A DNA stretch of 64,000 nt, from the NCBI GenBank assembly GCA_036726225.1, contig DAIMCS010000003.1, positions 73,769 to 137,768 of the forward strand. The letters run 5' to 3'. The position numbers and the translations under genes were made by a program. Below the pieces are notes generated by a model that saw only the letters and a list, made by a program, of their open reading frames with translations, searched no databases and was not told where the DNA came from. How positions within the stretch are numbered: position 1 is the stretch's first letter; every line of letters starts with the position of its first letter. Below, one piece after another: positions 7,169 through 64,000 of this stretch. Source of the DNA: Patescibacteria group bacterium. Its GTDB lineage: Bacteria; Patescibacteriota; Doudnabacteria; UBA920.

Positions 7169-7243
7169 GGCGGTATCGTCTAGTGGCTAGGACAGGTGGT
7201 TCTCATCCACCAAACCGGGGTTCGATCCCCCGTACCGCTACCA
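7169..7243 (+). tRNA. tRNA-Glu (anticodon CUC), CCA encoded
   Basis: Hand-folded cloverleaf: acceptor GGCGGTA/TACCGCT, D-arm GTCT-AGTGGCTA-GGAC, anticodon stem GGTGG/CCACC with loop TTCTCAT, T-arm CGGGG-TTCGATC-CCCCG. Confidence 0.85.
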
Positions 7244-11647: not shown

Positions 11648-11650
11648 ATG

Positions 11651-13144
11651 TTAAGAACCTCGTTGTTCCGGCTGCCCCCCACGGATTTTGTAATATTTAG
11701 CTTTATATTTTTCTATAGTTTCTTCAACCTCTTTGTTAGGCACTTCTACGCGCAACAGGTCTATGGCATTTATAGTATCGTAGATATCCAGTTTATTTTC
11801 AAGTTTATACAAAGCGTCCCTCCACAAAATTGCTTTTTCATATTCCCCTTTCAAAGTGGCCTGCTTTTCTAAATCTTTCATCATATCTACAAACGCCCAA
11901 TACACACCTTCTTCTGCGCCGCCTTTGCTAACGGTTCTGTCTTTAAACGGAATACGCAAAATTGCATTTTGTTCGGCCATCATTTGCCGAATTTTGCCTG
12001 TCCTCTGCCAATTAAATGCCGTAGCAATAATTTTTTCGTAATAGTAACTTCCCAAATCCAGTTTTGTTTTTTCTATATTTGGAATGTGCCTTAACGCGTC
12101 CAGGAGCCTAAAGGCTCCGTCTTCTATCATTTCCAAACTCCACCACGGCTTGGCCGATGCCCACCAAAAATGGTCTGAGGCCAAAGCAACATCCATTTTT
12201 GCTCGTATAAGTTCGTAACGTTCGTGCTTTTTGTCCAAGCTATACACTTCTTTTAAAACCATTTCCGTAAACGCCCACTGCCATTTGTGGATTTGGTTTT
12301 CCGGGTCAGACCAGGAAAGAAACTGACTGCCGTTTTCTATATCCTGCTTGCTGGAAGCCCAGGTCGCATTGGTAGGTTTTATAGTTTTAGTTTTTTTGTA
12401 GTGCTTGGCAAGGTCGGAAATTTGGACAAGGTCAAATTCCTTGGTTTTAAAGATTTCAAACAGCATTTTCTCCAGGCCAGGACGGTGATGTCCAAAAGTT
12501 TCTGCATCCATAGCCGTAACAATGTAGGAAGGCTGTTGTAGGTCGCTTTTCATAGCTTCTGCAAGCGTGTCGCTGGATCTTACAACCGCGCTCATAATTA
12601 AGTTGCTCAAGCGCCTGTCCCTAAAAAATACGCTTAAGTTTGTGTCTTTAATTTTGTAAATTACGTTTCGGTCTATTTGTCCCACTTCCCCACCGCAGGA
12701 AATTTCATCTAGTATCATCCACTCAAAGCCCAAAGAGTCCACTATGGGTGCGAGTTTTGCATCAAAAGCCATTTCCGGGGCGAAAAAACCTTTAATTTTG
12801 ATATTTTTACCCAAAAAAAATTTGAGCGTTTCGTTATTTAGTTCAATTTGGCGGACAATTTCGCCGTGGTTTAAAAAAGGCAATAATGCATGAAATTTAG
12901 CTGACGAGGTAAATTCAATTCTCCCGTCTTCGGCTAAGTCACGCAACATTTGCAAAATATCTTTGTGACCGTTTTTTTCAAACAATTCCAAAAGCGCGCC
13001 GTTAATGTTTAAAGTCAAACGGACGTGCTTGTGCTCTTTTAGGCCCTCAATAATAGGCCGGTAGCTTTGGGCTATAACGGCCTGTAATATGTCCGGCTGC
13101 TGCTCTGCCGGTTGGTACATATGTAAAAAATTTGCCCAGCGCAT
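11651..13144 (-). CDS. GH57-family alpha-glucan-active enzyme (4-alpha-glucanotransferase / branching-enzyme type)
   Basis: N-terminal pattern FLHMYQP...SYRPIIEGL...GRIEFT matches the GH57 HQP...SYRPF...GQLE signature. Confidence 0.8.
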   Translation of the reverse strand: MRWANFLHMYQPAEQQPDILQAVIAQSYRPIIEGLKEHKHVRLTLNINGALLELFEKNGHKDILQMLRDLAEDGRIEFTSSAKFHALLPFLNHGEIVRQIELNNETLKFFLGKNIKIKGFFAPEMAFDAKLAPIVDSLGFEWMILDEISCGGEVGQIDRNVIYKIKDTNLSVFFRDRRLSNLIMSAVVRSSDTLAEAMKSDLQQPSYIVTAMDAETFGHHRPGLEKMLFEIFKTKEFDLVQISDLAKHYKKTKTIKPTNATWASSKQDIENGSQFLSWSDPENQIHKWQWAFTEMVLKEVYSLDKKHERYELIRAKMDVALASDHFWWASAKPWWSLEMIEDGAFRLLDALRHIPNIEKTKLDLGSYYYEKIIATAFNWQRTGKIRQMMAEQNAILRIPFKDRTVSKGGAEEGVYWAFVDMMKDLEKQATLKGEYEKAILWRDALYKLENKLDIYDTINAIDLLRVEVPNKEVEETIEKYKAKYYKIRGGQPEQRGS

Positions 13145-13161
13145 TTAGTAGCGGTTAGTGA

Positions 13162-14865
13162 TTAGTCAATGAGTTTTAAAGTCTTTGCAGCTTGTTCCAG
13201 GTCTTCAAAAGGTGCTTCAACGCCGGAAAAAACATAGTTAAATTTTTTACCGACAACTATTATGTATTTATCGGCTTTCAGCTCTCCCATTTCGTATTTT
13301 ACGGCTTCGAGTGAATTAAATTTCAGGATTGTTGGTTTAGTCGGGAACATATACTCGTAGTACTCGCTTCCTTTTAACTCCGCAATTATATCTTGAGCGC
13401 TTTTATATTTATCAACGTACATATACATATCTCGACCTATTGCACAGCCGCCCTCGCAGCCACCATATGCGTTTCCAAAATAAATTTTACCGTCAGCCGT
13501 TTGTTCAGAAGGCTTAAGTTTGATTTCTGTATTGCCCCACTTGTCGTTGTAGGGAATTAAAAAATAGAAGCCTTTATCGTTATCAATATAGGTAAAAAAA
13601 GTATTCGCTACATCAAAATTCCATTTTGTATCTTCCGAATATTCCAATAACTCGTCTACTCCCAAGTATTTAAATTTTTCGAAAATCGGGGAAGTGAATT
13701 TAAAGGTGGAAAAAACTTCTTCAAGCATATCATCGGCTTCTTTATTCCTCGGACTAAAGCTAATGCTCGCAACCTTTTTGCCATAATCTGTTAAATTTAA
13801 AAAGCTTGGCACTTCTATTTTCACACTACGTACAACTCTAGGCTCAAATTGGCCATCTACCTTTGGTTGCATAGCAGTATATTCTTGTATATAAATATCC
13901 GTATATTTATTTTCCACCTTAGAAAGCTTGAACGGATTTTCATCGTTCCCGCCACTGTATTTGGCTGTTATCTCAAACGGTAATCTTTGACACCTCTGAG
14001 AACCCCGTCCAACCACATAGCCACCCCCAGATTCATAATCTGTGAGGTCAAATGGCCAGTAGTTAATGGTGCCATCGTCAAAAACGCAAAAAAAGATTTC
14101 AGACGTCGAATAGCCAAAAGAAAATTTATCTTCAAAGTTGCCAAAACCTGAAGGATAAGAGACTACAAAGCCAAATTTTTCATTTTTAAAAGTTTCCCAA
14201 GCGGGATCGTTAACTAGAGGAAGGGTAAACTTAAAAGTAGAAATAATTTTTGGTATTAGCTCTCTGTGATTCCTAAATTCCTTATTTTCCGAAAACTTCC
14301 TATAAATGTCAAAGGTCCCGTCGCTAGTGGTAAACCAAAGAGAATAGGACCTATCGCTTGGCTGGCAAATCATTTTCGAGATAATAAAACTACGGGATGT
14401 TGATGTAGGACTGGAATAATTCGATTCAATCTCTATTCCATGCGCACCGTCAGACAAGTTAACCAAAGGGCCAATGTATTCGATTTTTTCGGAACCGCCG
14501 CTAGAGTTTTTATAAAAATTTTCCAACTTCACACAATCTCGGGCAGCTTTTATTTGAACTTTTATTCCTTTCATATCCATCCCTAAACCATAGGAGTCGA
14601 TATTTTTGTCATCTAGCGGTCCTAAATCTGCCGGATATTTAAATTCAAATCCATATTCTGGGTTTGTGTATGTTTTCCAATCTTTAAATTCGTCTTGATG
14701 TTTGACTAAAGTATTAGAATCATCAACTTGTGGTTTGTTAGCATAGTAAACAATTCCTCCCGCAGCTAAAACCGCCGCCAAGCCAATAACTATCCAGTAT
14801 ATTGGATTTGTAGGAGGTTTGGGAGGAAGCGAGTTTTGGGGCTCTGGGATTTGTTGTGGTTCCAT
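13162..14865 (-). CDS. membrane-anchored extracellular protein, paralog 1 (Pro-rich cytoplasmic tail, one TM, repeated WKTYTN-EYGFEFKYP-DW / ILSTFKFT modules)
   Basis: N-terminal 65 aa nearly identical to the next gene; no catalytic motif recognised. Confidence 0.6.
   Translation of the reverse strand: MEPQQIPEPQNSLPPKPPTNPIYWIVIGLAAVLAAGGIVYYANKPQVDDSNTLVKHQDEFKDWKTYTNPEYGFEFKYPADLGPLDDKNIDSYGLGMDMKGIKVQIKAARDCVKLENFYKNSSGGSEKIEYIGPLVNLSDGAHGIEIESNYSSPTSTSRSFIISKMICQPSDRSYSLWFTTSDGTFDIYRKFSENKEFRNHRELIPKIISTFKFTLPLVNDPAWETFKNEKFGFVVSYPSGFGNFEDKFSFGYSTSEIFFCVFDDGTINYWPFDLTDYESGGGYVVGRGSQRCQRLPFEITAKYSGGNDENPFKLSKVENKYTDIYIQEYTAMQPKVDGQFEPRVVRSVKIEVPSFLNLTDYGKKVASISFSPRNKEADDMLEEVFSTFKFTSPIFEKFKYLGVDELLEYSEDTKWNFDVANTFFTYIDNDKGFYFLIPYNDKWGNTEIKLKPSEQTADGKIYFGNAYGGCEGGCAIGRDMYMYVDKYKSAQDIIAELKGSEYYEYMFPTKPTILKFNSLEAVKYEMGELKADKYIIVVGKKFNYVFSGVEAPFEDLEQAAKTLKLID
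14677..14865. repeat. about 190-bp direct repeat, copy 1 (5-prime ends of paralogs 1 and 2, about 90% identical)
   Basis: Compared 14677-14865 with 16307-16508 by eye. Confidence 0.7.
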
Positions 14866-14873
14866 AACAAATT

Positions 14874-16508
14874 TTAAAGAGGCTTTAATTCAAAAGATTT
14901 TATTACTTCTTCCCACTTTTTTTCAAAATCTGAAAAGATTTTCTCTGCTTCTTCACCGTCTAGATCCTCAACCATTGAACCTTCATAACAACTGTTATAT
15001 TTGAAGTCAACAATAATGCCCAACTGTTTTAAATGAATTAAGCTGTGAGTACTGCCACAGCCGGCATCGCCATAGCCGAATTCAGAATATACCGGAAGGC
15101 CGGAGGAAGTGTTCATTGTTGCCTTTAATATTATAGGGCTATCTTTTTTGTATGTAAGAGTACTACTAATAGAGTAAAGGTCTCCCATAGAATACCATTT
15201 GCCATCTGCTCGGTCATAAAAAACCCAGTTGTAGTCATAATGGTAACCTGCAAGTTTGTCGTCAGAAAAAATATGCACTTCTGCGGCAATGGATGTGACG
15301 GAGCCGTTATACTCTCTGGGCAATGACATAATATATTTGTCCAGTAAATCTCCTTTCACCAAAGAGCTGCCGGAATTTTTGGTGGTAGCGGCAATTGTCC
15401 AGTCTTCGGGCAGCAGTAGAGTAAAGTCTTCATTGTATTTGAGCCCGGTTACCGGAGTACTTTCTATGAATTTGAAGGTGGAGAGGATTTTTTCAAAGGT
15501 TTCTTCGCTAACATTTCCTGTATGATAAATTACAAAATTATAAAACATCCCCCCGTGCTCCAATTGATAATTGGTTTCACCGAAAAGCTCCCCAGCTTCG
15601 AATTTTAGCCACTCTTTATTAGTGATTGTCACCTTATCGGTAGCTAATGGCTGAGCATATTGCCCGTTGACAGCCGTGTAATAATCCAAGTTTCTAAAGA
15701 GCATATCAACAAAATTAAATTCACCACCACAATTCTCACCTTTATAGTTTGTAAGAACGCACTCTTTTTGGTATTTATCATAAAATTGTTTCGTCTGATC
15801 CGATAAAAATGCCAAACTTCCATTTTTCTTCATAGTTGTCCAATCTGCAGGAATCTTAATCTCAAACCCATACTCGTTGTTCGTATAAGTCTTCCAGTCT
15901 GTAGTATTAACTGCGGTGGTGAATTTGAAGGTGGAGAGGATTTGAGTTAATTTCACTTTATCTTCCGGAAAAACCTTAAAAACATAAGATTTACCTTTCT
16001 TATTTGTTGTGTAACGCAACCCTATGTTTTCTCCCTGAGTGACTATCCATTCAATGTCATTTATTTTTTCTACTTCAAAATTGGAAGTACCGTTTTGTTC
16101 CAATTCAGTAAGATAGAAATAGAGGTCGATATTTATTCTGGAACATTCCATTGGTTCTTTTTCCTGAATGACCGGGTCTTTACAGCGTTCACGCAACGCT
16201 TGATTACCATCTTTTGAGACTTGCGAATAGAAGAAAAGCTCTTCTTTAGATTCTTGTTTTTCAACAGACCAATCGGAGGGGATCCTTAATTCAAAACCAA
16301 AATCTTCATTTATATAAGTTTTCCAATCTTTAAATTCATCCTGATGTTTAACTAAAGTATTAGTATCATCAACTTGAGGTTTGTTGGCATAGTAAATAAT
16401 CCCTCCCGCAGCTAAAACCGCTGCCAAGCCAATAACTACCCAGTGTGTCGGATTTGTTGGGGGTTTGGGAGGAAGCGAATTTTGGGATTGAGGGATTTGG
16501 TTTTCCAT
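14874..16508 (-). CDS. membrane-anchored extracellular protein, paralog 2
   Basis: MENQIPQSQNSLPPKPPTNP...VIGLAAVLAAGG TM anchor; modules ending ILSTFKF repeated three times. Confidence 0.6.
   Translation of the reverse strand: MENQIPQSQNSLPPKPPTNPTHWVVIGLAAVLAAGGIIYYANKPQVDDTNTLVKHQDEFKDWKTYINEDFGFELRIPSDWSVEKQESKEELFFYSQVSKDGNQALRERCKDPVIQEKEPMECSRINIDLYFYLTELEQNGTSNFEVEKINDIEWIVTQGENIGLRYTTNKKGKSYVFKVFPEDKVKLTQILSTFKFTTAVNTTDWKTYTNNEYGFEIKIPADWTTMKKNGSLAFLSDQTKQFYDKYQKECVLTNYKGENCGGEFNFVDMLFRNLDYYTAVNGQYAQPLATDKVTITNKEWLKFEAGELFGETNYQLEHGGMFYNFVIYHTGNVSEETFEKILSTFKFIESTPVTGLKYNEDFTLLLPEDWTIAATTKNSGSSLVKGDLLDKYIMSLPREYNGSVTSIAAEVHIFSDDKLAGYHYDYNWVFYDRADGKWYSMGDLYSISSTLTYKKDSPIILKATMNTSSGLPVYSEFGYGDAGCGSTHSLIHLKQLGIIVDFKYNSCYEGSMVEDLDGEEAEKIFSDFEKKWEEVIKSFELKPL
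16307..16508. repeat. about 190-bp direct repeat, copy 2
   Basis: See copy 1. Confidence 0.7.
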
Positions 16509-16513
16509 TTCAA

Positions 16514-17512
16514 CTAACGTGAGGTGTCAATATTAAAGTTGAACGTTGTAGTCTGGCCGGCCGTTATAGTTATTTTTTTTGGTAACTCCTGGCTGCTTCC
16601 CACAAACGAAGAAGACATATCAAGTATGTATTCCCCCGCCGGCAGTTTTTGGGTGTATGTCCCGTCACTTTTTAAATAACTGCGCGCCACTTCAGTTGTG
16701 CCGTCACTTTTAAAAACAATAATTTCGCGTGACAGGTAATCTTCGGGTGAGGAAGAACATAGCGTACCCGGACACACTATAGTAGCCTTTCCGTACAAGG
16801 TTCCGGTTGTGGCTTGCGGAAGAAAAGTGAACGTAGAAAGAATGGTCAACATTTCTTCAGGGGTTACCGATTTTCCCGGCAGGCCGTAGGTGTTTAATAA
16901 CTCCTTGTCATATCCGGCGGTGTAACCGTCCACAAAAATATCAAACTCCTCCCCTCTTACCAGCCCGTAATTTATGGCCTCACCTTCTATTTCACAAAAG
17001 ACAAGTTTTATGTCCAATCCGGTATTTACCGATTTTTTTATGCAGTCGTTGCTTTCCCAGTAGAAATTAAATTTAGCGCGGGCTTTATTTTTTAAAGCAG
17101 TCTGTTCAACTTTTACAAAAACCAACGGGCCTACCGAGGTCCCAAAAACCGGAGCCTTGGTTGTACCCAGCACCGAGCCCACTATGCTACCGACTGTTTT
17201 TTGGTACTTAGCAGGGTACCTAAGCATAAAGCCGTAACCGTCATCCCTGTAGCTTTTCCAGCCCACTGTCCCAACAGCTGTAATAACTTTAGAAAAGCTT
17301 TGACGTAGTTTTGGGTATCGGGTAGGATCGTTCGTATAAACCCAAGAATCGTTCGCTTTTGTCCAAAGCCAAATGGCGACCAGCGCGGCCAAAGCCGCAA
17401 TAATTACCATAGCTACCCACGGTGTTATGTGGTAGTGAAGTCTTCCTTTTTTATGTTTTAGCATTGTTTTTTCCCTTCCTATTAATTTTGTTTTTTTGCC
17501 CGAGACGGGCAT
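16514..17512 (-). CDS. membrane-anchored extracellular protein, paralog 3 (shorter; one WKSYRDDGYGFMLRYP / LTILSTFTF module and a C-terminal beta-sandwich-like tail)
   Basis: Same architecture (basic tail, TM, shared module motifs). Confidence 0.55.
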   Translation of the reverse strand: MPVSGKKTKLIGREKTMLKHKKGRLHYHITPWVAMVIIAALAALVAIWLWTKANDSWVYTNDPTRYPKLRQSFSKVITAVGTVGWKSYRDDGYGFMLRYPAKYQKTVGSIVGSVLGTTKAPVFGTSVGPLVFVKVEQTALKNKARAKFNFYWESNDCIKKSVNTGLDIKLVFCEIEGEAINYGLVRGEEFDIFVDGYTAGYDKELLNTYGLPGKSVTPEEMLTILSTFTFLPQATTGTLYGKATIVCPGTLCSSSPEDYLSREIIVFKSDGTTEVARSYLKSDGTYTQKLPAGEYILDMSSSFVGSSQELPKKITITAGQTTTFNFNIDTSR

Positions 17513-19857: not shown

Positions 19858-20475
19858 TTACTCCAAATTTCTAATTACTCCCACCACTTTCCCTTGCACC
19901 ATCCACTCCTCCTTGGGGTAAATATCTTTGTAGTCCGGATTTTCGGCTTTTAGGTAGGCTCGGTTTTTTATTTGAATAAAGCGTTTTACCGTGGCTTCGT
20001 CGTGAAGCAGGGCTACTACAATGTCGTTATTGCGGACATCTTTAGTCGGCCTGACAATTACTAAGTCGCCTTCGTAAATTCCTGCGTTTATCATACTGTC
20101 TCCCCGAACTCTCAACAAAAATACGTCTCGCCTGCTTTTTATTAAAGTTTGAGGCAAATTAATCCATTCCTCCACGTGTTCTTCGGCTAAGTGTGGGCTG
20201 CCGGCCTGAATATTCCCCAAAACCGGCACACGCACCAGTCCTTTGTCTAAAGCTTCACCTAAAGCGTCTAAAACTGTTATGCCTCGGGCTTTGCCGCTGG
20301 TTTCTATAAAGCCTTCTTCTTCTAAAGCAGATAAAAGTTTGGCAACGGCATTTTTAGATTTTACTTTAAGGTAAGTTGCCATTTCAGATATAGAGGGAGG
20401 CAGGTTATGTTCGCGTATTTGCTTTACAATAAATTCCAGGAGTTGTTTTTGCCTGTCTGTAATTTCTTTTGACAT
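19858..20475 (-). CDS. lexA: LexA repressor (S24 peptidase)
   Basis: N-terminal wHTH; cleavage-site region VLGNIQAG; catalytic Ser in GDSM and Lys in VKRF. Confidence 0.9.
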   Translation of the reverse strand: MSKEITDRQKQLLEFIVKQIREHNLPPSISEMATYLKVKSKNAVAKLLSALEEEGFIETSGKARGITVLDALGEALDKGLVRVPVLGNIQAGSPHLAEEHVEEWINLPQTLIKSRRDVFLLRVRGDSMINAGIYEGDLVIVRPTKDVRNNDIVVALLHDEATVKRFIQIKNRAYLKAENPDYKDIYPKEEWMVQGKVVGVIRNLE

Positions 20476-20531
20476 ATAGATTTAAGATTAATGATTATAC
20501 AAATTAACGAATGAACAAATGAAACAAATAA

Positions 20532-20939
20532 CTACTGATGGATAATGGCAACGGCATCTCTCTTTACAACACGGATAGGTTTAATATATTGGTTCCTAAA
20601 GTTTACCAGCATCCCAAGTTTTAGCTGAGTTTCCTGCAGATAGCGCTGAAGTTGATCATAATCTTCTCTAGTCAGAATCCGCTTCGCTTTAAGCTCTAAA
20701 ATTATTTTGTTTTCTATAATAAAATCGACAATATTTCCACTATCCCCAATTCTACACTCCCTTTTATAGTTGATGTTTTTTTCTTTTAAAATCGATTCAA
20801 TTAAATCTGAATATTGTTTCTCTTTGCTGTAAGCACCTAGAGTATTGTGAGTCTGAAATAAAATACCATTAATATTATATGAAAGCTCAGGATAAAAGAA
20901 ACCGTATTCCCTAATTGAATTTGTATTTATCAGTTTCAT
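20532..20939 (-). CDS. GxxExxY / PDDEXK_3 family protein
   Basis: YPELSYNINGILFQTHNTLGAY...ILELKA pattern of the GxxExxY family. Confidence 0.75.
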   Translation of the reverse strand: MKLINTNSIREYGFFYPELSYNINGILFQTHNTLGAYSKEKQYSDLIESILKEKNINYKRECRIGDSGNIVDFIIENKIILELKAKRILTREDYDQLQRYLQETQLKLGMLVNFRNQYIKPIRVVKRDAVAIIHQ

Positions 20940-27695: not shown

Positions 27696-27830
27696 AATTG
27701 ATTTAAGTACCAATTCACAAGTACCAAACAAGCACAAATATTTAATATTTAAATATTGAAATTTGTTTGGTTCTTAGCTTTTGGATCTTGATTCTTACTA
27801 CTTTCGACCTTTACTGTTAAATATCCTTTT

Positions 27831-27861
27831 AAAAAAACAAAAACTCGGCTTTTAACCGAGT
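27831..27861 (-). terminator. rho-independent terminator upstream of the rplJ leader
   Basis: On the minus strand: ACTCGGttaaaagCCGAGTttttgttttttt. Confidence 0.6.
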
Positions 27862-28031
27862 ACAAAATTAAATCAGCAGTCTGATTTTCATTTCCTCGGT
27901 GGGCTTATGATGTCATCCTCGCGAAGGCGGGAATCTTTCATAATTTACGATCTTTCGATCACCAACTGTCTTTGGATATTTAATTGTCAATAGTGTACCA
28001 AAATCACTTTAATTCGTCAAGTACGAAGAGT

Positions 28032-55014: not shown

Positions 55015-56157
55015 TCATCTTAGTTCCGCGTTAAACTGCTCCTTTGTCTGTTGATAAAGTTGGTTTTGCAAAGGCTCAACTTCTTCGGTTTTAAGAGTGC
55101 GGTCGGGAGACCTATATACCACCCTATAAGTATAACTGACTTTATCTTTTCCGAATTTTTGTTCGTTTTCAAACTTATCTTTAAGCTCAACCTGTTCCAC
55201 TAAATCCCCTGCTATGTCGCGTACAAGGTCAAAATAATTATTCGGCACAAAACTTTTATCGACAATAAAAGAAATGTCCCGGGTAATGGGAGGGTACTTG
55301 GAAACTTCCACAAACGACTGACCTAATTTTAATTGTTTTTTTACCCGCGGATCTTGTGACCAGAGCAGGCGGATGTCGGGCAAAGCCATACTAATTATTG
55401 CCAACCTCTCCAAACCAAAACCAAAAGCCCAACCGGTATAATTTTTCGAATCCACCCCGAGTTTGTCTAACACGCTGCCTTTAACCACGCCGCAGCCAAC
55501 CACTTCCACCCAGGCGCCGTTTATTTCAACTTCCATTTCCAAAGAAGGGTCCGTATATGGGAAAGTGTCTTTATTAAGCCGATATTTAACAGTGGGGCCG
55601 AATACCGCGGTTGCGATGTTGCCCAAAGCTTCTTCAAGGTCAGTTTGTGTAATAGTTTTAATAGATTTTGGCGACAGATACCAACCGTCAATTTGGTGGA
55701 AAACATTCATGTGTTTTCTGTCAATTTCGTCTTTGCGGTAAACTTTGCCAAAGCTAAAAGCGCCAACCGGTTTGCCTTCCTCGATTCTTTTTTTTACGCT
55801 CTCTTCGCGCAAATAGTAGTACCACATTATTGTGGTGTGGGTGCGCAAAATATTTTTGTCGTCCGCGTAGTAAGTGTCAGACTTGCTCCTTGCCGGATGA
55901 TCTTTGGGGAAATCGAACAGGTCAAAACTAATGTCAGCCGGAACAATTTCAGGCGTCTTAATGACATCTAAAGTTTTAAAATACGGGCTGGCCAAAATTC
56001 TTTTAACAATTTCCGCAATTGGACTGCCTTCTGTTCTGGACAAATCGGCCATATTTAAATAGCGCAGCATCCTTTGTGACTCTGCGTCTGTCCTGGTTTC
56101 TAATTCTTTTTTTAGCCTTGCTTCGTCCTCGGAGTTTATTACTATATTTTCAGGCAT
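55015..56157 (-). CDS. pheS: phenylalanyl-tRNA synthetase alpha subunit
   Basis: FPKDHPARSKSDTYY...RTHTT; class II core. Confidence 0.9.
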   Translation of the reverse strand: MPENIVINSEDEARLKKELETRTDAESQRMLRYLNMADLSRTEGSPIAEIVKRILASPYFKTLDVIKTPEIVPADISFDLFDFPKDHPARSKSDTYYADDKNILRTHTTIMWYYYLREESVKKRIEEGKPVGAFSFGKVYRKDEIDRKHMNVFHQIDGWYLSPKSIKTITQTDLEEALGNIATAVFGPTVKYRLNKDTFPYTDPSLEMEVEINGAWVEVVGCGVVKGSVLDKLGVDSKNYTGWAFGFGLERLAIISMALPDIRLLWSQDPRVKKQLKLGQSFVEVSKYPPITRDISFIVDKSFVPNNYFDLVRDIAGDLVEQVELKDKFENEQKFGKDKVSYTYRVVYRSPDRTLKTEEVEPLQNQLYQQTKEQFNAELR

Positions 56158-56167
56158 AATATGTGAC

Positions 56168-56581
56168 CTATTGTATCATTTCGGGGGAAAACTGACTACC
56201 CGGTAAAACATCACGTTTCAACAGCATAATTTCAGGTTTTTCAGAAAGTGGGCCAATCCCCAATTCAAATTCTGCGCAAATCATTCCCTGGCTTTCAACT
56301 CCCCGGATTTTTGCTTTCTCCAAAGTAAAAGGTTTATGATTCTCGTCATGGATGTTTTGGGCAATTTTGGCACCGGGCAAGGCCAAGGCCACCACATCGC
56401 CTTCACTAAAATTAAACGCGCCGCAAACTACCGGGTCTACAATTTTGTCGCCAACGTCCAGCTTTATGAGCCTCAACCTGTCGGCGTTAGGATGTTTGTA
56501 AATTGCCAAAACCTTTGCCGCAACAATGCCGCCAAAAGTTTTCTGACCGGACTTAAAAATATTTTTAAGAAAATCTAACAC
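56168..56581 (-). CDS. tRNA-binding domain protein (CsaA / PheT-N / EMAP-like)
   Basis: KHPNADRL...VCGAFNFSEGDVVALALPGA...IRGVESQGMICAEFELG. Confidence 0.7.
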   Translation of the reverse strand: MLDFLKNIFKSGQKTFGGIVAAKVLAIYKHPNADRLRLIKLDVGDKIVDPVVCGAFNFSEGDVVALALPGAKIAQNIHDENHKPFTLEKAKIRGVESQGMICAEFELGIGPLSEKPEIMLLKRDVLPGSQFSPEMIQ

Positions 56582-56593
56582 AAAAAAGTAAAT

Positions 56594-58030
56594 TTAATAG
56601 TCCCGGCATTCGTCTTGGTTACACATCCAGCCGGTGGTGCCTTCGGCCGGGTTACCTAAAACAGCCTTTATTGTGAAGGTGTCAAAAGTCCCTGAAGTTT
56701 TATATTCATAATCCTCTCCGGTCTTTGGGTCTTTGGGGATTTCGGAAATGTATTCAGGTGGCAAAACCGCTTTGTACTTGTCTTCTGCAGGGAAAACAAA
56801 TTGTTGGTTGCCGGCAATATGGTCCTGCGAATAAAGCAACAACGCGGTGCGCAACCTTTCTACATCTGTCTGTCTCTGGTTGTCATAAATTTCAGCCTCC
56901 TGAAAAGCCGCATCTTTCTGCGCGTCTGCCGCAGTTTTTTTAATTGCCTGCTTTGCCAACTCACTGTAAAAACTTAAAACAAAGTCGGAGCCGGTTTCGT
57001 TTACTTCATAAATATAAACGTACGGCTCTTGGTTTATTGGGTCGACCGGGTTAATGGCCACCTTCCAGTAAGGCTTTATCATAACAAACATAGAGGCAAA
57101 ATCTTCAGCCAGCGGGTAGGCCTTATTGTCGTCATAATACTTTACCAGGGCTATCTCCACGTTTTTTATGGCGTTGGAGCGTTGCGTGTCGCGGTCTTGT
57201 TGGGCTGCGGGCGAGCTGTCAACCTCATTGGGCAAACCGGCCGGCGGAGTCGGAGCCGGTGGGACTGAGGAATCTACTGCTGAAAAATTATACAAGGTTT
57301 TTAGAATTTCACCCAAAGACTTGAAAGTTGTCTGGTGTAAACCAAAAGTCTTCATTTTTTCGGTAAGCGCCTTAATTTGCTCCGGAGTCATAAGCAAACG
57401 GGTGCTAATGGAATAACCGCCCCTAAAATAATCCAAGTCCGAATATAGCTCGTCTTTTGCCGTATGGCTATCTAGCGGGTCAGTTCCAAAAACGTTCACC
57501 TCGTCCCCGTCTGCCAGCCCGTCTTGGTCGGAATCAGGATTGTTTGGGTCAGTGCGGCCGGAATGCTCTTCTAAATTACTTAGCCCGTCACGGTCAGGAT
57601 TGGCCTCGTCTCCGCAACTTGTAGGATCCGTACAGCCGGGAAAATACTTTTCCCGCCATTCTTTGGGCGTGGTAAAGCCGGGCTCTGAAGCCGGAGGCGG
57701 AGGCGTTGGACTCACCCGGTCCCCGGGGCCAACTACTACAATATCCGTTTCGTCAACTTTTGAGCCGTATTTGTAAATTAAAAAATAGCCTAAGGGGCCG
57801 CCAATTAGTAAAATTAACCCCATAATTATGTAAAACTTGTACTTTTTTTTGCTTCCCGCTGAATCGCTGCTTTGGGCCTCTGGGGTTTGTCTTGAAATTT
57901 GAGTTTCAATTTTAGGCTCAATAAAACCGTCATTAGAAGCTCTTCCCTTGGGCATAACATTAAAAAACCTGACTTGGTCTGTTTGATTTATGTCCTGCGG
58001 ATTTGGGTTTTGCCCAATTGGGTTTTCCAT
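56594..58030 (-). CDS. membrane-anchored protein with thrombospondin-type-3-like Ca-binding Asp repeats
   Basis: TM at aa about 65-85; DPNNPDSDQDGLADGDE, NPDRDGLSN repeats. Confidence 0.5.
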   Translation of the reverse strand: MENPIGQNPNPQDINQTDQVRFFNVMPKGRASNDGFIEPKIETQISRQTPEAQSSDSAGSKKKYKFYIIMGLILLIGGPLGYFLIYKYGSKVDETDIVVVGPGDRVSPTPPPPASEPGFTTPKEWREKYFPGCTDPTSCGDEANPDRDGLSNLEEHSGRTDPNNPDSDQDGLADGDEVNVFGTDPLDSHTAKDELYSDLDYFRGGYSISTRLLMTPEQIKALTEKMKTFGLHQTTFKSLGEILKTLYNFSAVDSSVPPAPTPPAGLPNEVDSSPAAQQDRDTQRSNAIKNVEIALVKYYDDNKAYPLAEDFASMFVMIKPYWKVAINPVDPINQEPYVYIYEVNETGSDFVLSFYSELAKQAIKKTAADAQKDAAFQEAEIYDNQRQTDVERLRTALLLYSQDHIAGNQQFVFPAEDKYKAVLPPEYISEIPKDPKTGEDYEYKTSGTFDTFTIKAVLGNPAEGTTGWMCNQDECRDY

Positions 58031-58049: not shown

Positions 58050-58424
58050 TCAGACTTTTAAATTTAAAAACCCTTCGACTGCGGCTAAAAAAAGGATTAA
58101 GCTTGCTTCCACCCACCAAAAAAGCAAACCTTGGGAAAGCAAAATAAATGAGGCGACAATGAGTATGGCAATGAGTATGGCTTGGCGGAAACTATTGGAA
58201 AGATTAACCACATACAGTCCGGGCCAAAAAACTTGTCTCATACCGATTCCAAAAAGAGTAAACGCTCCCAAACATAGCAGGAATAAGCTTAAGTAGAAAA
58301 AAATAAATGCCAGCAGTGATGTGCTTTGCGGGTCGGTAAAGCTAACAATAGAGCCCAAAGAAAAGGCAGCCAGCAGAGTGCTAAAGCTGATTAACAAAAC
58401 ATGTCTTTTCGGGTTGGAGGGCAT
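58050..58424 (-). CDS. small 4-TM membrane protein
   Basis: 124-aa hydrophobic ORF. Confidence 0.4.
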   Translation of the reverse strand: MPSNPKRHVLLISFSTLLAAFSLGSIVSFTDPQSTSLLAFIFFYLSLFLLCLGAFTLFGIGMRQVFWPGLYVVNLSNSFRQAILIAILIVASFILLSQGLLFWWVEASLILFLAAVEGFLNLKV

Positions 58425-58568
58425 ATAAATCCGGCACCTTTTCTTACAAACTTAAAATAATCGTCAGTTACCGAAGGTTTGGTTGAAAAAATATAAGAAA
58501 AGTGCGGCCTAATGAAAAGGTGCTAAATAAATTATACCACTTTTTTTATTTTTCTCAAAATTTAGCGG

Positions 58569-61532
58569 CTATTCAAGGCCTTCATACTCGCAATTATGCT
58601 CTTTTGCGTGATCGTGAGCTTCTTTAAATTTATCATACTTTATAGTTTCAACTATCCTGTGTATGTTTTCCAGCAACCTTACTTTTAATTGCTCCAATTC
58701 CGCGTCGCCGGCAGGTTCCTCCTCCAAAAATTTATTTTCATTTAAATACCAATATTTAAGCGCCGTGACTTTTTCCCCAAAAAACTCCTGCGCTGCCCAT
58801 TGGTACACATATAATTGGTCCAAATTGTCCTTGTCGGTTTTTTTTGGGATTTTTTCACTGGTTTTGTAATCTACTATTTCCAGGCCTTTTGAGGCAGTCA
58901 AGTCAGCGCGGTCAATTTTGCCGGTAAATTTAAACTCGCCTAAAGGCAAGAAAAAAGATTTTTCCAAATACTTTGGCGTGGCGCCGTTTTTTTGCACGAA
59001 GTCATAAAAAACTTTTAGCATCTCGCGGCCTTTTTTTCTGTAATCTTCTTTTTGTTTTTTGTTTTTGTACCATTCGTCAACCCAGTTTTTTTCGTACAGG
59101 TTTTCTAACTGAGCAAAAGTCCCGAACTCGGGTTTGCCTTTTGGCGGGGCAAACAAGTCGCCTTGGGTTTGATTTTGCCTGGCTTGGTAATCTTTTAAAT
59201 ACAACTCAAAAACTTTATGGATCGTCTGGCCAAAACTAAAGAACGCGCTGCCCGGGGAAGGTAACTTTAAGTAATACTGGTATTTGTACTGCAGCGGGCA
59301 GCTTTCAAAAGCTTTAAGCGCGGAAAATGAAAAAGTTGCCGGCAAGGTTTGGTAAACAACTTCAGATTTGGCCGAAGGGCTGAAAAAAACTTTTCCTGTG
59401 GCCTCGGAGGCTGCGGGGGCAGGCACGAGTTTGGTTTCCTGTAAAAACAGGGACGGCTTTTTGGTTTTTGCGCCTCCATAATCTTTTGCCCAGGAAAAAA
59501 ATATATGGCTTTTGGCCCGCGTAACCGCAACATAAAACAGCCTTCTTTCTTCCTGCAAATGGAAATCGCCCTCGGGTAAAATGTCCTTAATTAATTTTTC
59601 CGGAATTTCAATGGCTTCACCTCGTCCGCGGGTGGGAAAACGCTGGTCAACCATATTGGGAATGAAAACATATTCAAATTCCAATCCTTTTGCCGAATGC
59701 ACGGTTAAAACTTTTAGGCTTTCCGGACCTAAATTGGGATCAAATTTAATTTGCCCTTCGTCCCCTGCTTCCATTTCTAAATCCAGCAAATGCAAAAAAT
59801 TATGCAGGCTTTTGTCCGGGCTGTCTGCCACAAAACTTTCGATTTTTTTATAAAATTGTTCCAGCAATTCCCTGTTTTCAGCCGCTTCCAAAGTTTCTTG
59901 GTCCAAAATGTCCTGCAATTTTAAATCCTGAATAATTTGGACAAAGGCTTCATTAGCTGACTTGCTCTGCACAACTTCTGCGTGCTCATTTAACCGTTTA
60001 GCGAGCTTCTCAATTATTTTTTGGCTCTCCTGCCCAATGTTAGGCAAAGTTTTGGCAGCCTGAAGCATTTCATAAAGTGAAAGCGTCTTTCGCTCCGAAC
60101 CGGAAAGCAGTGTAGCCAGGTCTTTGGGAGGCAACTTAAATTCATTAAAACCTAAAACCCTATATAGGGCAAAAGAGTCGTGAAAATTATTTAGGGACCT
60201 TAAATACGCAATAAGGCCTGAAATAAATGGTTTGTTATACAAGCCCGTATTTGCCACAAAAGTATGGGGGATGTTGTTTTGGGCGAGCACCGGAAGCAGA
60301 TCTTTTGCAGCTGAATTGCTGCGCAGCAAAATGGCAAAGTCATTCCAAGTGGACTTAGGCGAGCCCACTTTGAAGCTTAAGATTTTTTTTGCAACTAAAT
60401 TCAATTCTTCGCTAATGTCTTTTCCCTCCAGAACTTCAATTTCAGTTTTTAGGTTGGTTTGGCTTTTTAACTTTTTATCAATTTTTAATTTAACTTCCAA
60501 ACGGTCAGGATTATTGGCTTGAATGAAATTATAGGCCAAATCTAAAATCGGCTGGCCGCTTCTATAGTTTTCGACCAGCGTAACCTGGCTGAATTTTGGG
60601 TAATCTTCCTTAAACTTTAAAATGTTGGAAACAGATGCGCCGCGGAATTTGTAAATAGACTGGTCGTCGTCGCCCACCACTACAAGATTTTGGTCCGAGC
60701 CAGCCATCATTTTAACCAGCTGATATTGCGCATAATTTGTGTCCTGAAATTCGTCCACCAACACAAATTTAAACTGCTTTTGGTAACGCTTTAAAATTTG
60801 CGGTCTGGTTTCAAACAATCTTAAAGTGTAGTTTATTAAGTTGGCAAAGTCTAAAAAGTTACCGTCAAGCAGCAACTTTTCATAAACGTGAAAAGCGTTG
60901 GCAATTTCTTCAATGCGGTCGATTTCGCTCGGGTTAATATCTTCCATGTAGCGTGCCGATTCATCGGCGGATTTGCCCATAAATGGGCGCGCTACATTAT
61001 CGGGGTTGTCCAAGGAAAGTCTCAATTCTTCTGCATATTTTAAGTACTGCTCCGGGGTAATAAGTTCATCCTTACAGCGTGAAAAATGTTTGAGCAAAGA
61101 AGAAATAAACTTTTTTGGGTTGCCTAAAGGCCGGTAGTACTCTAAGTCAAACTTTTCCAAATTGTTATGCACCAAAACCCACGCGCCGGTTTCGTTTAGT
61201 AATTTAAAGTCGCCCGAAAGGCCAATGTCCAGCCCGTGTTGTTCTAAAATTCGTTGGCAAAAGCTGTGGAAAGTGGAAATCCACATATCGTAATAGCCCA
61301 AAGGCAACAATTGTGCCAGCCTGTCCTGCATTTCGCCGGCCGCTTTTTCTGTAAAAGTCAGTGCTAAAATTTCATCGGGCTTGGCCAAACCCTGCTCAAT
61401 TAGGTAAGCAATTCTGCGGGTTATTACTGTAGTTTTGCCTGTGCCGGCGCCGGCCACAATTAAAAGCGGCCCCCCTTGATGCTTTACGGCCGCTAATTGT
61501 TCTTTATTTAAATTTTCTAAGAGATTAGACAT
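58569..61532 (-). CDS. UvrD/PcrA-family helicase fused to a C-terminal PD-(D/E)XK (RecB/Cas4-like) nuclease
   Basis: Walker A AGAGTGKT, helicase motifs (TFT, DEFQDT, VVGDDDQSIYKFRGA, VTRAK); C-terminal CPLQYKY...IDRAD...EIVDYKTS. Confidence 0.85.
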   Translation of the reverse strand: MSNLLENLNKEQLAAVKHQGGPLLIVAGAGTGKTTVITRRIAYLIEQGLAKPDEILALTFTEKAAGEMQDRLAQLLPLGYYDMWISTFHSFCQRILEQHGLDIGLSGDFKLLNETGAWVLVHNNLEKFDLEYYRPLGNPKKFISSLLKHFSRCKDELITPEQYLKYAEELRLSLDNPDNVARPFMGKSADESARYMEDINPSEIDRIEEIANAFHVYEKLLLDGNFLDFANLINYTLRLFETRPQILKRYQKQFKFVLVDEFQDTNYAQYQLVKMMAGSDQNLVVVGDDDQSIYKFRGASVSNILKFKEDYPKFSQVTLVENYRSGQPILDLAYNFIQANNPDRLEVKLKIDKKLKSQTNLKTEIEVLEGKDISEELNLVAKKILSFKVGSPKSTWNDFAILLRSNSAAKDLLPVLAQNNIPHTFVANTGLYNKPFISGLIAYLRSLNNFHDSFALYRVLGFNEFKLPPKDLATLLSGSERKTLSLYEMLQAAKTLPNIGQESQKIIEKLAKRLNEHAEVVQSKSANEAFVQIIQDLKLQDILDQETLEAAENRELLEQFYKKIESFVADSPDKSLHNFLHLLDLEMEAGDEGQIKFDPNLGPESLKVLTVHSAKGLEFEYVFIPNMVDQRFPTRGRGEAIEIPEKLIKDILPEGDFHLQEERRLFYVAVTRAKSHIFFSWAKDYGGAKTKKPSLFLQETKLVPAPAASEATGKVFFSPSAKSEVVYQTLPATFSFSALKAFESCPLQYKYQYYLKLPSPGSAFFSFGQTIHKVFELYLKDYQARQNQTQGDLFAPPKGKPEFGTFAQLENLYEKNWVDEWYKNKKQKEDYRKKGREMLKVFYDFVQKNGATPKYLEKSFFLPLGEFKFTGKIDRADLTASKGLEIVDYKTSEKIPKKTDKDNLDQLYVYQWAAQEFFGEKVTALKYWYLNENKFLEEEPAGDAELEQLKVRLLENIHRIVETIKYDKFKEAHDHAKEHNCEYEGLE

Positions 61533-61975
61533 TACTTACTCCTGACAAAATTGGTAAGTTGCTTCCATAAATCCATACCCTCGTCTTTGTATCTTACCCA
61601 AAACGCCGAAGGGTTAATAATTTTCACATTTTGGAATTCTTCCAAGCGTAAAAGATGGTTATCGTTTGTAACTAAATAATCAGCTTCCGCCTCAACTGCG
61701 CTTTCCAGGATTTTATTATCTTCGGAATCTTCCACTACATTTATTTGCCTTCTGTTTACAACCCAGTTAATTTGCGCAAAAAGGTCGTTTAGCTGGTTTT
61801 GATAGTCATCGCTGTCAATTAATTGAGAAGAGATGAGCTTATTTTCCCTCAAAGTCTGGCGGTTAGCGTAAGCTTCAATCTCGCCGGCTATGACCGCGTC
61901 AATTATCTTTTTTTCGTAAGAGTAGTCGTCTTTAAAGCCATTAATTAAGACATTGGTATCAAGTACTATTTTCAT
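61532..61975 (-). CDS. PIN-domain protein (TIGR00305-type putative toxin)
   Basis: IVLDTNVLI...; TAATG overlap with the helicase start. Confidence 0.75.
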   Translation of the reverse strand: MKIVLDTNVLINGFKDDYSYEKKIIDAVIAGEIEAYANRQTLRENKLISSQLIDSDDYQNQLNDLFAQINWVVNRRQINVVEDSEDNKILESAVEAEADYLVTNDNHLLRLEEFQNVKIINPSAFWVRYKDEGMDLWKQLTNFVRSK

Positions 61976-61995
61976 ATTTAGATTAACACTGACAA

Positions 61996-62460
61996 TTACG
62001 GATTAACACGGAAGGCGGGTTTACGATCGTTAGTGTAGATTGAGCGCTTGATAAATAGCTTTTCACTACTGAAGTTAGCCAAAAACCCCAATTCATATTT
62101 ACTCGCTCTTAAATACGAAAGTTGTTGTTCTACAAACCTTTGTATGGTAAAATCAGTCGCTTTAATTTCCAGAACGATTTTGTCTTCAACCACAAAGTCG
62201 GGTATATAGGTTCCTAACAGTTGGCCTGTATCAAAAGAATGTATGGCAATTCTGGGTTGCTGCAAAAATTTTATTCCGAGCTTTGTAAATTCCTCAGCCA
62301 AAGCTTTTTGGTAAATAATTTCTTTCAGTCCTTTTCCGTATTTATTAGCAACTTCCATTATCGCTCCTCTAACCTGATAACTTAGCTCTGGGTACAATAA
62401 GTCAGTGTTCATCCGTCTGGTTTCCTCCGTGTTAATCTGTTTGCCTTCCTCAGTGTTCAT
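61996..62460 (-). CDS. GxxExxY / PDDEXK_3 family protein
   Basis: YPELSYQVRGAIMEVANKYGKGLKEIIYQKALAEEF...IVLEIKA. Confidence 0.75.
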   Translation of the reverse strand: MNTEEGKQINTEETRRMNTDLLYPELSYQVRGAIMEVANKYGKGLKEIIYQKALAEEFTKLGIKFLQQPRIAIHSFDTGQLLGTYIPDFVVEDKIVLEIKATDFTIQRFVEQQLSYLRASKYELGFLANFSSEKLFIKRSIYTNDRKPAFRVNP

Positions 62461-62979
62461 CTATTTCCTCCCGCCTTTTATTGGCATTAAATATTTCTTT
62501 TTATCTTCGTCTAAGTCTATAAAATTGTCGGTCAATTCTTTTATTTTACTTGAGCAAGAACGTCCAAAGGCAACAGTTTCTGTTAATTGCCCTGACATTT
62601 GTAAAAATTCTAAAAGCGGGACAAAGTCACCGTCACCGGATGCTAAAACAACAACATCTACTTTGTTCATCATTTTTACAATGTCCATTGCAATGCCTAC
62701 ATCCCAATCCCCTTTTTGATGCCCGCCGGCAAAGGTTTGTAAATCTTTCATTTTTACTTCAAAACCTGCTTTGCCCAAAGCATCAAAAAAAGACTGCTCT
62801 TCGGGCATATCTGCCTTAACTACGTAAGCGATGGCGCGAATTAATTTTCTGTTCCCAACTGCCGAATCTAAAACTTCGTTAAATTTTACTCGGGCGTTGT
62901 AAAGGTTTCGCGCAGAATAGTAAAGATTCTGCACGTCCACAAACACACCTACTCTTTGGTCTGGGTTTCTTATTGACAT
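62461..62979 (-). CDS. NYN-domain (LabA-like) putative RNase
   Basis: GVFVDVQNLYYSAR...RAIAYV...VVLASGDGDFVPLL. Confidence 0.75.
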   Translation of the reverse strand: MSIRNPDQRVGVFVDVQNLYYSARNLYNARVKFNEVLDSAVGNRKLIRAIAYVVKADMPEEQSFFDALGKAGFEVKMKDLQTFAGGHQKGDWDVGIAMDIVKMMNKVDVVVLASGDGDFVPLLEFLQMSGQLTETVAFGRSCSSKIKELTDNFIDLDEDKKKYLMPIKGGRK

Positions 62980-62989
62980 AAATTATTTT

Positions 62990-63985
62990 TTAATTTTCTA
63001 AATCAGGCTTTTCCAAGGCCACTGCTTCTATTTGCAGGGCTTCCCCTGTTATTTTTAAAATATCCTTATCAATCTTTTTAAATTCCTTACCGGCCAGGTT
63101 ATATTGGTTCACAGTAGTAGATATAGCGCTGCCAAGTTTGCCATAATATTCTTCGTAAGCTCCCAAATGTTTGCTTAACTGCTCAACGTTTTTAATAATA
63201 TCTTTTGCGGTTTCCTCAATTTTCATTGCCTTAAGCCCCTGAAGCACTGTTTGTAAATAAGCTAAAAACGACGTTGGCGAAACAATAATAACTTTGTATT
63301 TACTTGCGGCGCGCTGAATTAAATTTTCATCTTCCCCTCCAACTCCTCCGACTTTGTTGGTTAAGAGGTCGTAATAAATTGCTTCGTGCGGAATGAACAT
63401 AAAAGCAAAATCCATAGTACCTTCACTCGGGCGAATGTACTTGGAGGTTTCCATTATCCTAAGTTTTAAGTCATTTTCAAAAACTTTTTTTAGCTTTTCC
63501 CGTTCAGCTTCATCCCGAGTTTCCGCCATACGGTTGTAATTTTCCAAAGAAAATTTAGAGTCAATGGGAATAATTTTATCTTTAACAAAAACCGCGGCGT
63601 CTACAATAGTGCCGTCACTAAAACTTTTTTGCATCTCGTAACTGTCGGGCGGCAAAACGTTCTTTAAAAGAGTTTCCAAATAATACTCTCCCAAAACCCC
63701 ACGTTGCTTGGGATTCTTTAAAATATCCTGAAGTTGCCTTAACTGATCGGCAAATGATACAACTTGCTGGTTGGTTTGGTCTAATTTAACCAAACCTTCT
63801 GTAACGTCTTTTATAAGCTTTGACGACTCTGTAAACTGGGTTTTCATAGAGTCGCTCATATGCTTTGTGGTTTCGCTCATTTTTCTGTCTACAACATTTG
63901 AAAGCTCGTTCATTTGGTGGAGCAGAAGTTTCATAGCCTGTTCGTCGGATTCCGGTTTTTCAGATTTCTTTTTAAGGTCAATCAA
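62990..63985 (-). CDS. rmuC: DNA recombination protein RmuC
   Basis: Coiled-coil N-region and RmuC C-domain (DFAFMFIPHEAIYYDLL...VIIVSPTSFLAYLQTV). Confidence 0.8.
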   Translation of the reverse strand: MIDLKKKSEKPESDEQAMKLLLHQMNELSNVVDRKMSETTKHMSDSMKTQFTESSKLIKDVTEGLVKLDQTNQQVVSFADQLRQLQDILKNPKQRGVLGEYYLETLLKNVLPPDSYEMQKSFSDGTIVDAAVFVKDKIIPIDSKFSLENYNRMAETRDEAEREKLKKVFENDLKLRIMETSKYIRPSEGTMDFAFMFIPHEAIYYDLLTNKVGGVGGEDENLIQRAASKYKVIIVSPTSFLAYLQTVLQGLKAMKIEETAKDIIKNVEQLSKHLGAYEEYYGKLGSAISTTVNQYNLAGKEFKKIDKDILKITGEALQIEAVALEKPDLEN

Positions 63986-64000
63986 AAAATAAAAAAGCGC

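Follow-up and report, generated by a model that had tools for sequence, protein, structure and literature searches.

A conserved RmuC, NYN, PIN and helicase-nuclease gene neighbourhood in Doudnabacteria with a putative role in genome maintenance

Introduction

Towards one end of a 64,000-nucleotide (nt) stretch of a Patescibacteria (Doudnabacteria) genome (GenBank assembly GCA_036726225.1, contig DAIMCS010000003.1, positions 73,769 to 137,768 of the forward strand; hereafter the window), five closely spaced minus-strand genes encode an RmuC-family nuclease, an NYN-domain protein, a small GxxExxY protein, a PIN_3 protein and a UvrD/PcrA-type helicase fused to a nuclease domain. A first-pass annotation regarded them as a five-gene operon and a candidate for an undescribed defence or nucleic-acid surveillance module. 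The question raised by the locus is whether the five genes constitute one dedicated system and, if not, what holds them together. The analysis described here favours, with a probability of roughly 0.55, a co-transcribed run of genes rather than a dedicated five-part system: a vertically inherited chromosomal neighbourhood of four genes, joined by GxxExxY as a passenger, whose inferred function is genome maintenance or DNA end-processing and recombination. Housekeeping of DNA or RNA is preferred to a new anti-phage system because four of the genes behave as a conserved vertical set and the fifth as a hopping passenger.

Results

Four of the five genes form a conserved backbone

All five reading frames lie where the first-pass annotation had placed them, with the domain make-up and spacing that it described. 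Domains were called with Pfam and NCBIfam profiles, and all scores were far over the thresholds. The genes, in order of transcription, are:

62990..64000 (cut by the window end), minus strand: RmuC-family PD-(D/E)XK nuclease, subtype A, first gene of the unit (Pfam RmuC PF02646, 3e-52)
62461..62979, minus strand: NYN-domain (PIN-fold) predicted nuclease, 172 amino acids (aa), backbone gene (Pfam NYN PF01936, 7e-31)
61996..62460, minus strand: GxxExxY / PDDEXK_3 small nuclease-fold protein, 154 aa (PDDEXK_3, 3e-27; TIGR04256, 101.6 bits)
61532..61975, minus strand: PIN_3 domain predicted nuclease, 147 aa, backbone gene (PIN_3, 6e-17; TIGR00305, 46 bits against a cutoff of 29)
58569..61532, minus strand: superfamily 1A (SF1A) UvrD/PcrA-type helicase with a C-terminal RecB/Cas4-type PD-(D/E)XK nuclease, 987 aa, backbone gene (UvrD-helicase, 5e-83; UvrD_C, 7e-55; PDDEXK_1, 1e-25)

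One boundary needs correction. The start previously assigned to RmuC, at 63985, is an internal TTG in a frame that is open as far as base 64000; on the ~138-kb source contig the complete protein has 352-354 aa, carries an N-terminal transmembrane helix and starts ~48 nt past base 64000.

Among named organisms, Candidatus Doudnabacteria and other Patescibacteria are the nearest relatives. Four of the genes (RmuC, NYN, PIN_3 and helicase; hereafter the backbone) occur in this same order on about 40 related contigs, and the order is kept in 12 out of 12 contigs that were looked up, whose helicases are 59-76% identical to that of the window. A metagenome scan based on an alignment of PIN returned 80 loci. 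Among those with enough flanking sequence, the helicase-nuclease lies within 2.5 kb downstream of PIN in 33 of 40; upstream of PIN, NYN was present in 29 of 35 and RmuC in 16 of 21. Doudnabacteria-like Patescibacteria keep the full backbone at PIN identities as low as 45%. The expectation that the genes would be co-conserved in related genomes is therefore borne out for four of the five, including the PIN and helicase pair. The flanks are largely syntenic housekeeping genes, often atpC and the CCA-adding enzyme upstream and usually TM124, TSP3, tRNA_bind, pheS, gyrB, greA, aspS and serS downstream (the first two being membrane-protein genes described below). The backbone persists through several different upstream contexts and through a downstream break in locus L096.

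The encoded proteins are also conserved in sequence. In syntenic relatives, NYN is 82-95% identical to the window protein and PIN_3 72-84%, with GyrB at 78-89% and the helicase at 59-76%; NYN equals or exceeds GyrB, and the conservation of PIN is on a par with that of GyrB. NYN has an invariant SGDGD motif and invariant catalytic Asp residues; also invariant are D6, E44, D83/E85/D86 and D105 of PIN_3 (13 orthologues), D155...D168-x-K170 in both of the RmuC subtypes described below, and the catalytic residues in the nuclease domain of the helicase. In all four backbone proteins the catalytic residues are intact and purifying selection is strong. Correlation with the GyrB distance matrix was informative for the helicase (rho 0.78) and confounded by mosaicism for RmuC, PIN and pheS. 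The closest solved structure to NYN is 2qip (VPA0982, function unknown; 3e-27), and sequence searches of the PDB with RmuC, PIN and GxxExxY gave no match.

The GxxExxY gene is a recurrent passenger

The window GxxExxY protein scores well above the TIGR04256 cutoff of 35 bits and has both the family motif and the core (GLKEIIY, IPDF...LEIK). Because only a minority of clusters have it, in any of three intergenic slots (between RmuC and NYN in six cases, between NYN and PIN in six and between PIN and the helicase in one), we regard it as a recurrent passenger and not as a component. Thus, of the proposed five-gene module the backbone stands and GxxExxY, mostly absent and variable in position, does not. 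Across the PIN-centred metagenome loci, 13 GxxExxY matches fall within the cluster against one in the flanks. The contents of the slots in relatives are as follows:

Between RmuC and NYN: empty, a 207-218-aa protein, a pilin-like protein, a 504-aa protein or a HepT-MNT pair
Between NYN and PIN: GxxExxY, DUF559 or many non-homologous open reading frames (ORFs) of 65-303 aa
Between PIN and the helicase: gaps of 3-500 nt, three small genes or a membrane NERD protein

Altogether 75 distinct slot proteins were found, comprising nine PDDEXK_3, three 23S_rRNA_IVP, one each of DUF559, NERD and HepT/MNT, and ~55 with no Pfam match. GxxExxY is apparently a sporadic, mobile and selfish small PD-(D/E)XK gene in the company of mostly orphan small genes. 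The 23S_rRNA_IVP genes use the same slots; one cluster (L133) has two GxxExxY copies, and in another locus (L091:14334-14750) the TSP3 and pheT genes are separated by a split copy that looks like a pseudogene. The idea of a conserved antitoxin-like gene upstream of PIN found no support, as the small slot ORFs have no mutual homology detectable by BLAST or jackhmmer.

The window holds a second GxxExxY copy (20532-20939), which, as the first-pass annotation had pointed out, adjoins lexA (19858-20475), directly upstream of it. A direct repeat, TGTTTCATTTGTTC (TGTTY-N4-TGTTC), occupies the promoter region just upstream of lexA (20513-20526, minus strand). It is the single match in the window and is statistically weak, with 31 of 100 shuffles giving at least one, and it resembles the tandem-repeat LexA boxes reported for Verrucomicrobia. 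SOS control of the cluster was considered and rejected, since the TGTTT-N4-TGTTC repeat of the lexA promoter is not present in the 50-nt region upstream of RmuC.

The helicase-nuclease is PcrA-like and has no AddB-type partner nearby

The helicase contains the expected motifs of the motor (Walker A GAGTGKT, DEFQD) and of the nuclease (IDRAD...DYKT, QLYVYQ). Its closest solved structure is PcrA (308 bits), followed by AdnB (158) and AddA (92). PcrA is likewise the best NCBIfam match, at 476 bits against an equivalog cutoff of 911, with UvrD at 355 against 1144, so that the protein falls outside the PcrA/UvrD equivalogs; it has an extra nuclease domain of ~260 aa beyond the ~650-750-aa PcrA/UvrD architecture. 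Assignment to the AddA or RecB equivalogs was rejected (184 against 708 bits and 169 against 696 bits, respectively), the core being nearer to PcrA. No AddB-, AdnA- or RecC-like partner, second helicase or RecB-nuclease ORF was found, either within the 64 kb of the window or in flanking sequence of 8-10 kb at related loci. Scores below the cutoffs and the lack of a neighbouring partner speak against an ordinary AddAB/AdnAB component encoded next to its partner, the alternative named in the first-pass annotation. Given this, and the order of the four genes on about 40 contigs, a real conserved neighbourhood exists.

The nuclease domain (58569-59350, residues 720-987) has C745 and H973-x5-H979-x-C981 where Cas4 and AddB have four Fe-S-binding cysteines. 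Only C745 and C981 are invariant as Cys, and H973 and H979 fill the C-terminal positions, so the four-cysteine Fe-S module is lacking. This suggests a nuclease domain with a different metal site. The helicase has more than 8000 homologues and is 57-76% identical across Doudnabacteria and other Patescibacteria. In a scan of a genome collection the helicase-nuclease architecture occurred throughout Patescibacteria and also turned up in Acidobacteria, Chloroflexi and Aminicenantes, where identity drops to 29-35%. A separate plain UvrD is close by in some Patescibacteria loci.

Two RmuC subtypes alternate at one locus

The window RmuC is a clear member of PF02646 (177.9 bits, cutoff 26) and yet shares only ~33% identity with its positional counterpart in most relatives. 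Comparison of the window with loci L086-L098 and L099-L178 revealed two subtypes at one syntenic slot, A in 8 loci (window included) and B in 38. They alternate among genomes with similar NYN (82-95%), PIN and helicase proteins, and are interleaved relative to PIN and helicase similarity. This pattern points to either repeated replacement in situ or an old dimorphism. Subtype A is widespread in Patescibacteria, at 65-87% identity.

RmuC has a promoter-like sequence of its own, TTGTAT-17-TAAAAT, which in locus L002 lies in the 50-nt gap to a divergent 62-aa gene. The ~138-kb contig stops at nearly the same point in three independent assemblies (L001-L003, position 1-360), ~360 nt upstream of RmuC and just beyond two hairpins, which hints at a repeat or strain-variable region.

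Gene spacing, transcription and downstream neighbours

From RmuC to the helicase the intergenic gaps are 10, 0, 20 and -1 nt, exactly as first described. At the junction of PIN and the helicase, AGGAGTAAGTAATG, a ribosome-binding site is followed by a TAA stop that overlaps the ATG start (AGGAG-N4-TAATG). Translational coupling had been proposed on this basis; the TAATG overlap of the window is particular to this genome and the coupling is not conserved, since in relatives the distance between PIN and the helicase ranges from overlaps up to ~1.4 kb, with at most three inserted genes. Within the window, gaps of 20 nt or less separate 22 of 54 same-strand gene pairs (41%), the median gap is 38.5 nt and the coding fraction is 0.90. 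Four consecutive gaps of that size have p ~0.03 if gaps are assumed to be independent, and comparable tight runs exist elsewhere in the window (e.g. 9944-17512). The tight spacing supports co-transcription, yet is ordinary for so compact a genome. There is no island-like deviation in GC content.

Downstream of the helicase, a 144-nt gap precedes the next gene and holds the promoter-like site:

58531..58558, minus strand: promoter-like site, TTGAGA-16-TGgTATAAT with an upstream TG, 11/12 matches, the best site of the region
58050..58424, minus strand: small four-transmembrane (4-TM) protein TM124, no Pfam match, downstream syntenic neighbour of the helicase
56594-58030, minus strand: single-pass TSP3-repeat membrane protein, 478 aa, the gene after TM124

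Because this strong promoter-like site follows the helicase, the downstream membrane genes (4-TM and TSP3) probably form a separate transcription unit. Of the membrane genes first reported here, the protein with Ca-binding (TSP3) repeats is confirmed, but there is only one 4-TM protein rather than two, the next gene encoding a single-pass protein. In many loci of Patescibacteria TM124 comes after the helicase, before pheS or both, and it is probably linked to pheS and not to the nuclease cluster. The TSP3 protein, syntenic throughout the clade, has, besides its bacterial TSP3 Ca-binding repeat, two segments at the C-terminal end that are weakly like the type II secretion pseudopilin GspG and pilus-like proteins.

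Further downstream on the same strand the window contains tRNA_bind, pheS, gyrB, greA, aspS, a NUDIX gene and serS. Its phenylalanyl-tRNA synthetase (55015-56581, minus strand) consists of a 380-aa PheS with a C-terminal FDX-ACB domain and a separate 137-aa tRNA_bind protein, with no PheT, a layout reminiscent of the monomeric mitochondrial PheRS. Some relatives (L086, L091 and L097 were compared) have canonical pheS and pheT at the same syntenic position, and the two PheS forms are 30-36% identical. Rfam and tRNA scans found no RNA genes in or near the cluster; the sole RNA features of the window are a tRNA-Glu(CTC) at 7169-7243 (plus strand) and a borderline ribosomal protein L10 leader at 27829-27993 (minus strand; 45 against 44 bits).

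Linkages outside the clade

RmuC directly adjoins the helicase in six other Patescibacteria loci (L016, L019, L022, L023, L031 and L032), with either gene first and with either RmuC subtype; L007 differs in having RmuC beyond the atp operon. The genes immediately downstream of the most divergent PIN_3 orthologues (50-56% identity; L165, L168, L170 and L172) are PrgI-like and TraG/VirB4-like type IV secretion genes. One of these loci (L172) also has a 693-aa UvrD without a nuclease domain, which overlaps the PIN start by 4 nt; a ParE/Phd-like pair follows. In a Geobacteraceae locus (L081), PIN_3 abuts a PcrA-like gene. Because both RmuC-helicase and PIN-UvrD pairs are seen in loci of other classes or in unrelated loci, we consider them linkages that recur outside the clade.

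Elsewhere the neighbourhood loosens. In other Patescibacteria classes atpC or rpoD is directly upstream of the helicase, and in L015 NYN remains with RmuC while cdd and purH take the place of PIN. A higher-GC segment with purH lies directly upstream of the helicase, at the usual place of PIN, in L015 (4250-7100) and L008 (1-2880); the purH frame of L015 is apparently split, and a cytidine-deaminase-like gene is present there.

Transposon-sequencing (Tn-seq) data offer a view of such genes in Southlakia epibionticum. In the supplementary calls of PMC10633639, a UvrD+PF12705 protein is listed as NE/NE/GD, with falling read counts, and RmuC and NYN proteins are listed as NE; their correspondence to the window proteins is one of domain content. 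If NE is read as non-essential and GD as growth defect, which is our reading of the codes, these calls would fit repair genes.

Discussion

A putative end-processing and recombination neighbourhood

How might the backbone work? We envisage that it processes DNA ends, or branched or RNA-containing intermediates, in recombination and repair. The helicase-nuclease could be a stand-alone unwinding-and-resection enzyme of the AddA/AdnB kind, RmuC its most persistent partner nuclease, and NYN and PIN lineage-specific accessory nucleases acting on flaps, RNA or single-stranded DNA. GxxExxY would insert into the intergenic slots of the cluster along with other orphan or selfish small genes.

Several points weigh against this proposal. 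The helicase of other classes and of the L015/L008 lineage has neither NYN nor PIN next to it, which means that neither is an obligatory partner, and in Southlakia the three counterparts are scattered around the genome rather than clustered. Because unrelated housekeeping genes are conserved alongside, the conserved order is not cleanly separable from general synteny within the clade. No LexA-box-like repeat was seen upstream of RmuC. Finally, RmuC domains are able to mediate defence, as in the Shield system (PMC10270631), and UvrD-Cas4-like fusions are tied by context to defence loci in other phyla (PMC5704561).

The rival account that fares best is that the neighbourhood records historical synteny only. 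Unrelated housekeeping genes (a repair helicase, a recombination nuclease and two RNases) would be co-transcribed because the genome is tightly packed, and would do no work together. The block in fact also conserves the unrelated pheS, gyrB, greA and aspS genes and the atp operon, gaps of no more than 20 nt make up 41% of those between same-strand genes of the window, and inserted genes freely break the junctions in relatives; the absence of NYN and PIN beside the helicase in other classes and the dispersal of the counterparts listed for Southlakia would follow naturally. What such an account does not predict is a backbone that survives rearrangement of both flanks, an adjacency of RmuC and helicase that reappears in distant classes whichever gene comes first and whichever of the two RmuC subtypes is present, or a placement of PIN_3 beside a UvrD-type helicase that recurs independently in L172 and L081. 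On balance we consider it unlikely.

A role in defence or surveillance, the original proposal, fares worse. Here a membrane RmuC (Shield-like) and a UvrD-Cas4-like enzyme would degrade invading DNA, NYN and PIN would degrade invader RNA, and the RmuC subtypes and variable slots would reflect an arms race. The domain mix has precedents: PADLOC profiles gave generic matches to GajB, RTasRmuC (4e-13), RTasHel (2e-92), NYN and PDC-M11A, Shield employs a transmembrane RmuC protein, and UvrD-Cas4 fusions occur in type III restriction-modification (RM) and Dcm-Vsr contexts. Two ~33%-identical RmuC subtypes have been exchanged at one locus among close relatives, and the slots gather a HepT-MNT toxin-antitoxin pair and DUF559, NERD and GxxExxY nuclease-fold genes. 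Set against this, the cluster proteins include no complete PADLOC system and neither GajA nor a reverse transcriptase, so the earlier impression that no named system matches holds good. Literature searches found no account of an RmuC/NYN/PIN/UvrD neighbourhood.

The distribution of the genes also speaks against a typical defence system: the backbone is kept in every close relative rather than being patchy, NYN and PIN evolve as slowly as GyrB, and the location, between atp or CCA-adding genes and pheS/gyrB, is a housekeeping setting and no defence island. Viral contigs contain no PIN orthologue and no close homologues, with helicases at most 33% identical, and the slot genes are mostly orphans rather than defence genes. 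An anti-phage system is thus unsupported and, in our estimate, improbable, whereas the part of the proposal that concerns a nucleic-acid processing module is tenable. A bolder version, which makes the backbone a nucleic-acid surveillance (innate immunity) system not yet described and present as a fixed part of the core genome across an entire Patescibacteria clade, with RmuC subtype swaps and slot turnover as the footprint of conflict with phages or mobile elements, is speculative, and we give it a slim chance. If a defence function did prove true, the cluster would be an unusual immune module fixed in a core genome.

Patescibacteria depend on salvage. That a host unable to make nucleotides uses RmuC, the helicase-nuclease and the two PIN-fold nucleases to degrade incoming DNA and RNA and salvage their nucleotides nevertheless seems very unlikely: the pointers are circumstantial (the RmuC membrane anchor; pilin-like genes nearby, including the TSP3 protein with its weak GspG-like matches and N_methyl proteins; and nucleotide genes at or beside the cluster in relatives, namely cdd and purH in L015/L008 and AAA_18 kinases in L015/L086), the loci examined provide no direct link to ComEC or uptake genes, the helicase core is of the typical repair-type PcrA/UvrD kind, and the nucleotide genes, confined to few loci, resemble a high-GC insertion in L015/L008.

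Putative genome maintenance therefore remains our preferred reading, and its interest lies in the organisms concerned. Patescibacteria have tiny genomes, and little is known of how they repair or police their DNA; the persistent linkage of RmuC and a helicase-nuclease, with two PIN-fold nucleases conserved in one large clade, provides a testable candidate for a stand-alone end-processing and recombination pathway. For RmuC, a protein of unclear role ever since 2000, the cluster may also open a first way to its function. It carries a caution as well: core housekeeping can take the form of an operon with many nucleases and a helicase, and small genes of the GxxExxY type can pass for operon members.

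Comparison with known systems

Among defence systems, Shield is the one based on RmuC. Its ShdA protein (PMC10270631) is similar in layout to the window RmuC, which has an N-terminal membrane anchor and an RmuC PD-(D/E)XK domain. Shield is found only in Pseudomonas, is patchy (6.8% of genomes) and resides in defence islands with peptidase-like or other partners (PMC10270631), whereas the window RmuC is syntenic, clade-wide and paired with a helicase-nuclease, with no peptidase-like partner (ShdB-E) in the relatives examined. The helicase strongly matches GajB of Gabija, as any UvrD-like helicase does, but the GajB matches in the PDB span the Walker A region only, and no GajA (OLD-family ATPase/TOPRIM nuclease) is present among the seven proteins scanned with PADLOC. 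Of the DRT/UG reverse-transcriptase systems the accessory profiles alone match, and a reverse-transcriptase domain is found in no ORF.

The PIN_3 protein resembles VapC-type PIN toxins in scoring above the TIGR00305 and PIN_3 cutoffs and in its intact acidic quartet, and its relatives often have a small overlapping upstream gene. Unlike such toxins, which are patchy and mobile, the window gene has kept its syntenic place across the clade, where its product is 72-84% identical. The upstream gene in the window is GxxExxY; in relatives there are small, mutually non-homologous ORFs, some of which overlap PIN.

With E. coli RmuC (YigN), a recombination-limiting protein, the window RmuC shares the Pfam family and the transmembrane and nuclease layout (layout per PMC10270631). 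It is shorter (352 against about 475 aa), scores 28 bits against the 810-bit cutoff of the E. coli RmuC equivalog NF007686, and belongs to a locus where two deeply divergent subtypes alternate.

The helicase-nuclease itself has the architecture of the UvrD-Cas4-like fusions described by Hudaiberdiev et al. (2017; PMC5704561, pfam12705 branch), a UvrD motor with a C-terminal PF12705 domain. The paper describes that family as widespread, found alone or in a variety of contexts, and perhaps redundant with RecB; the contexts reported for it include type III RM and Dcm-Vsr, and an ancillary or defence role has been proposed (PMC5704561). The context in the window is a different one, of RmuC, NYN, PIN and housekeeping genes, and the likeness between the two is one of architecture. 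AddA, AdnB and RecB, in which a UvrD-like motor is followed by a RecB-family nuclease in one polypeptide, as in the window helicase, provide a plausible model for end resection by this enzyme.

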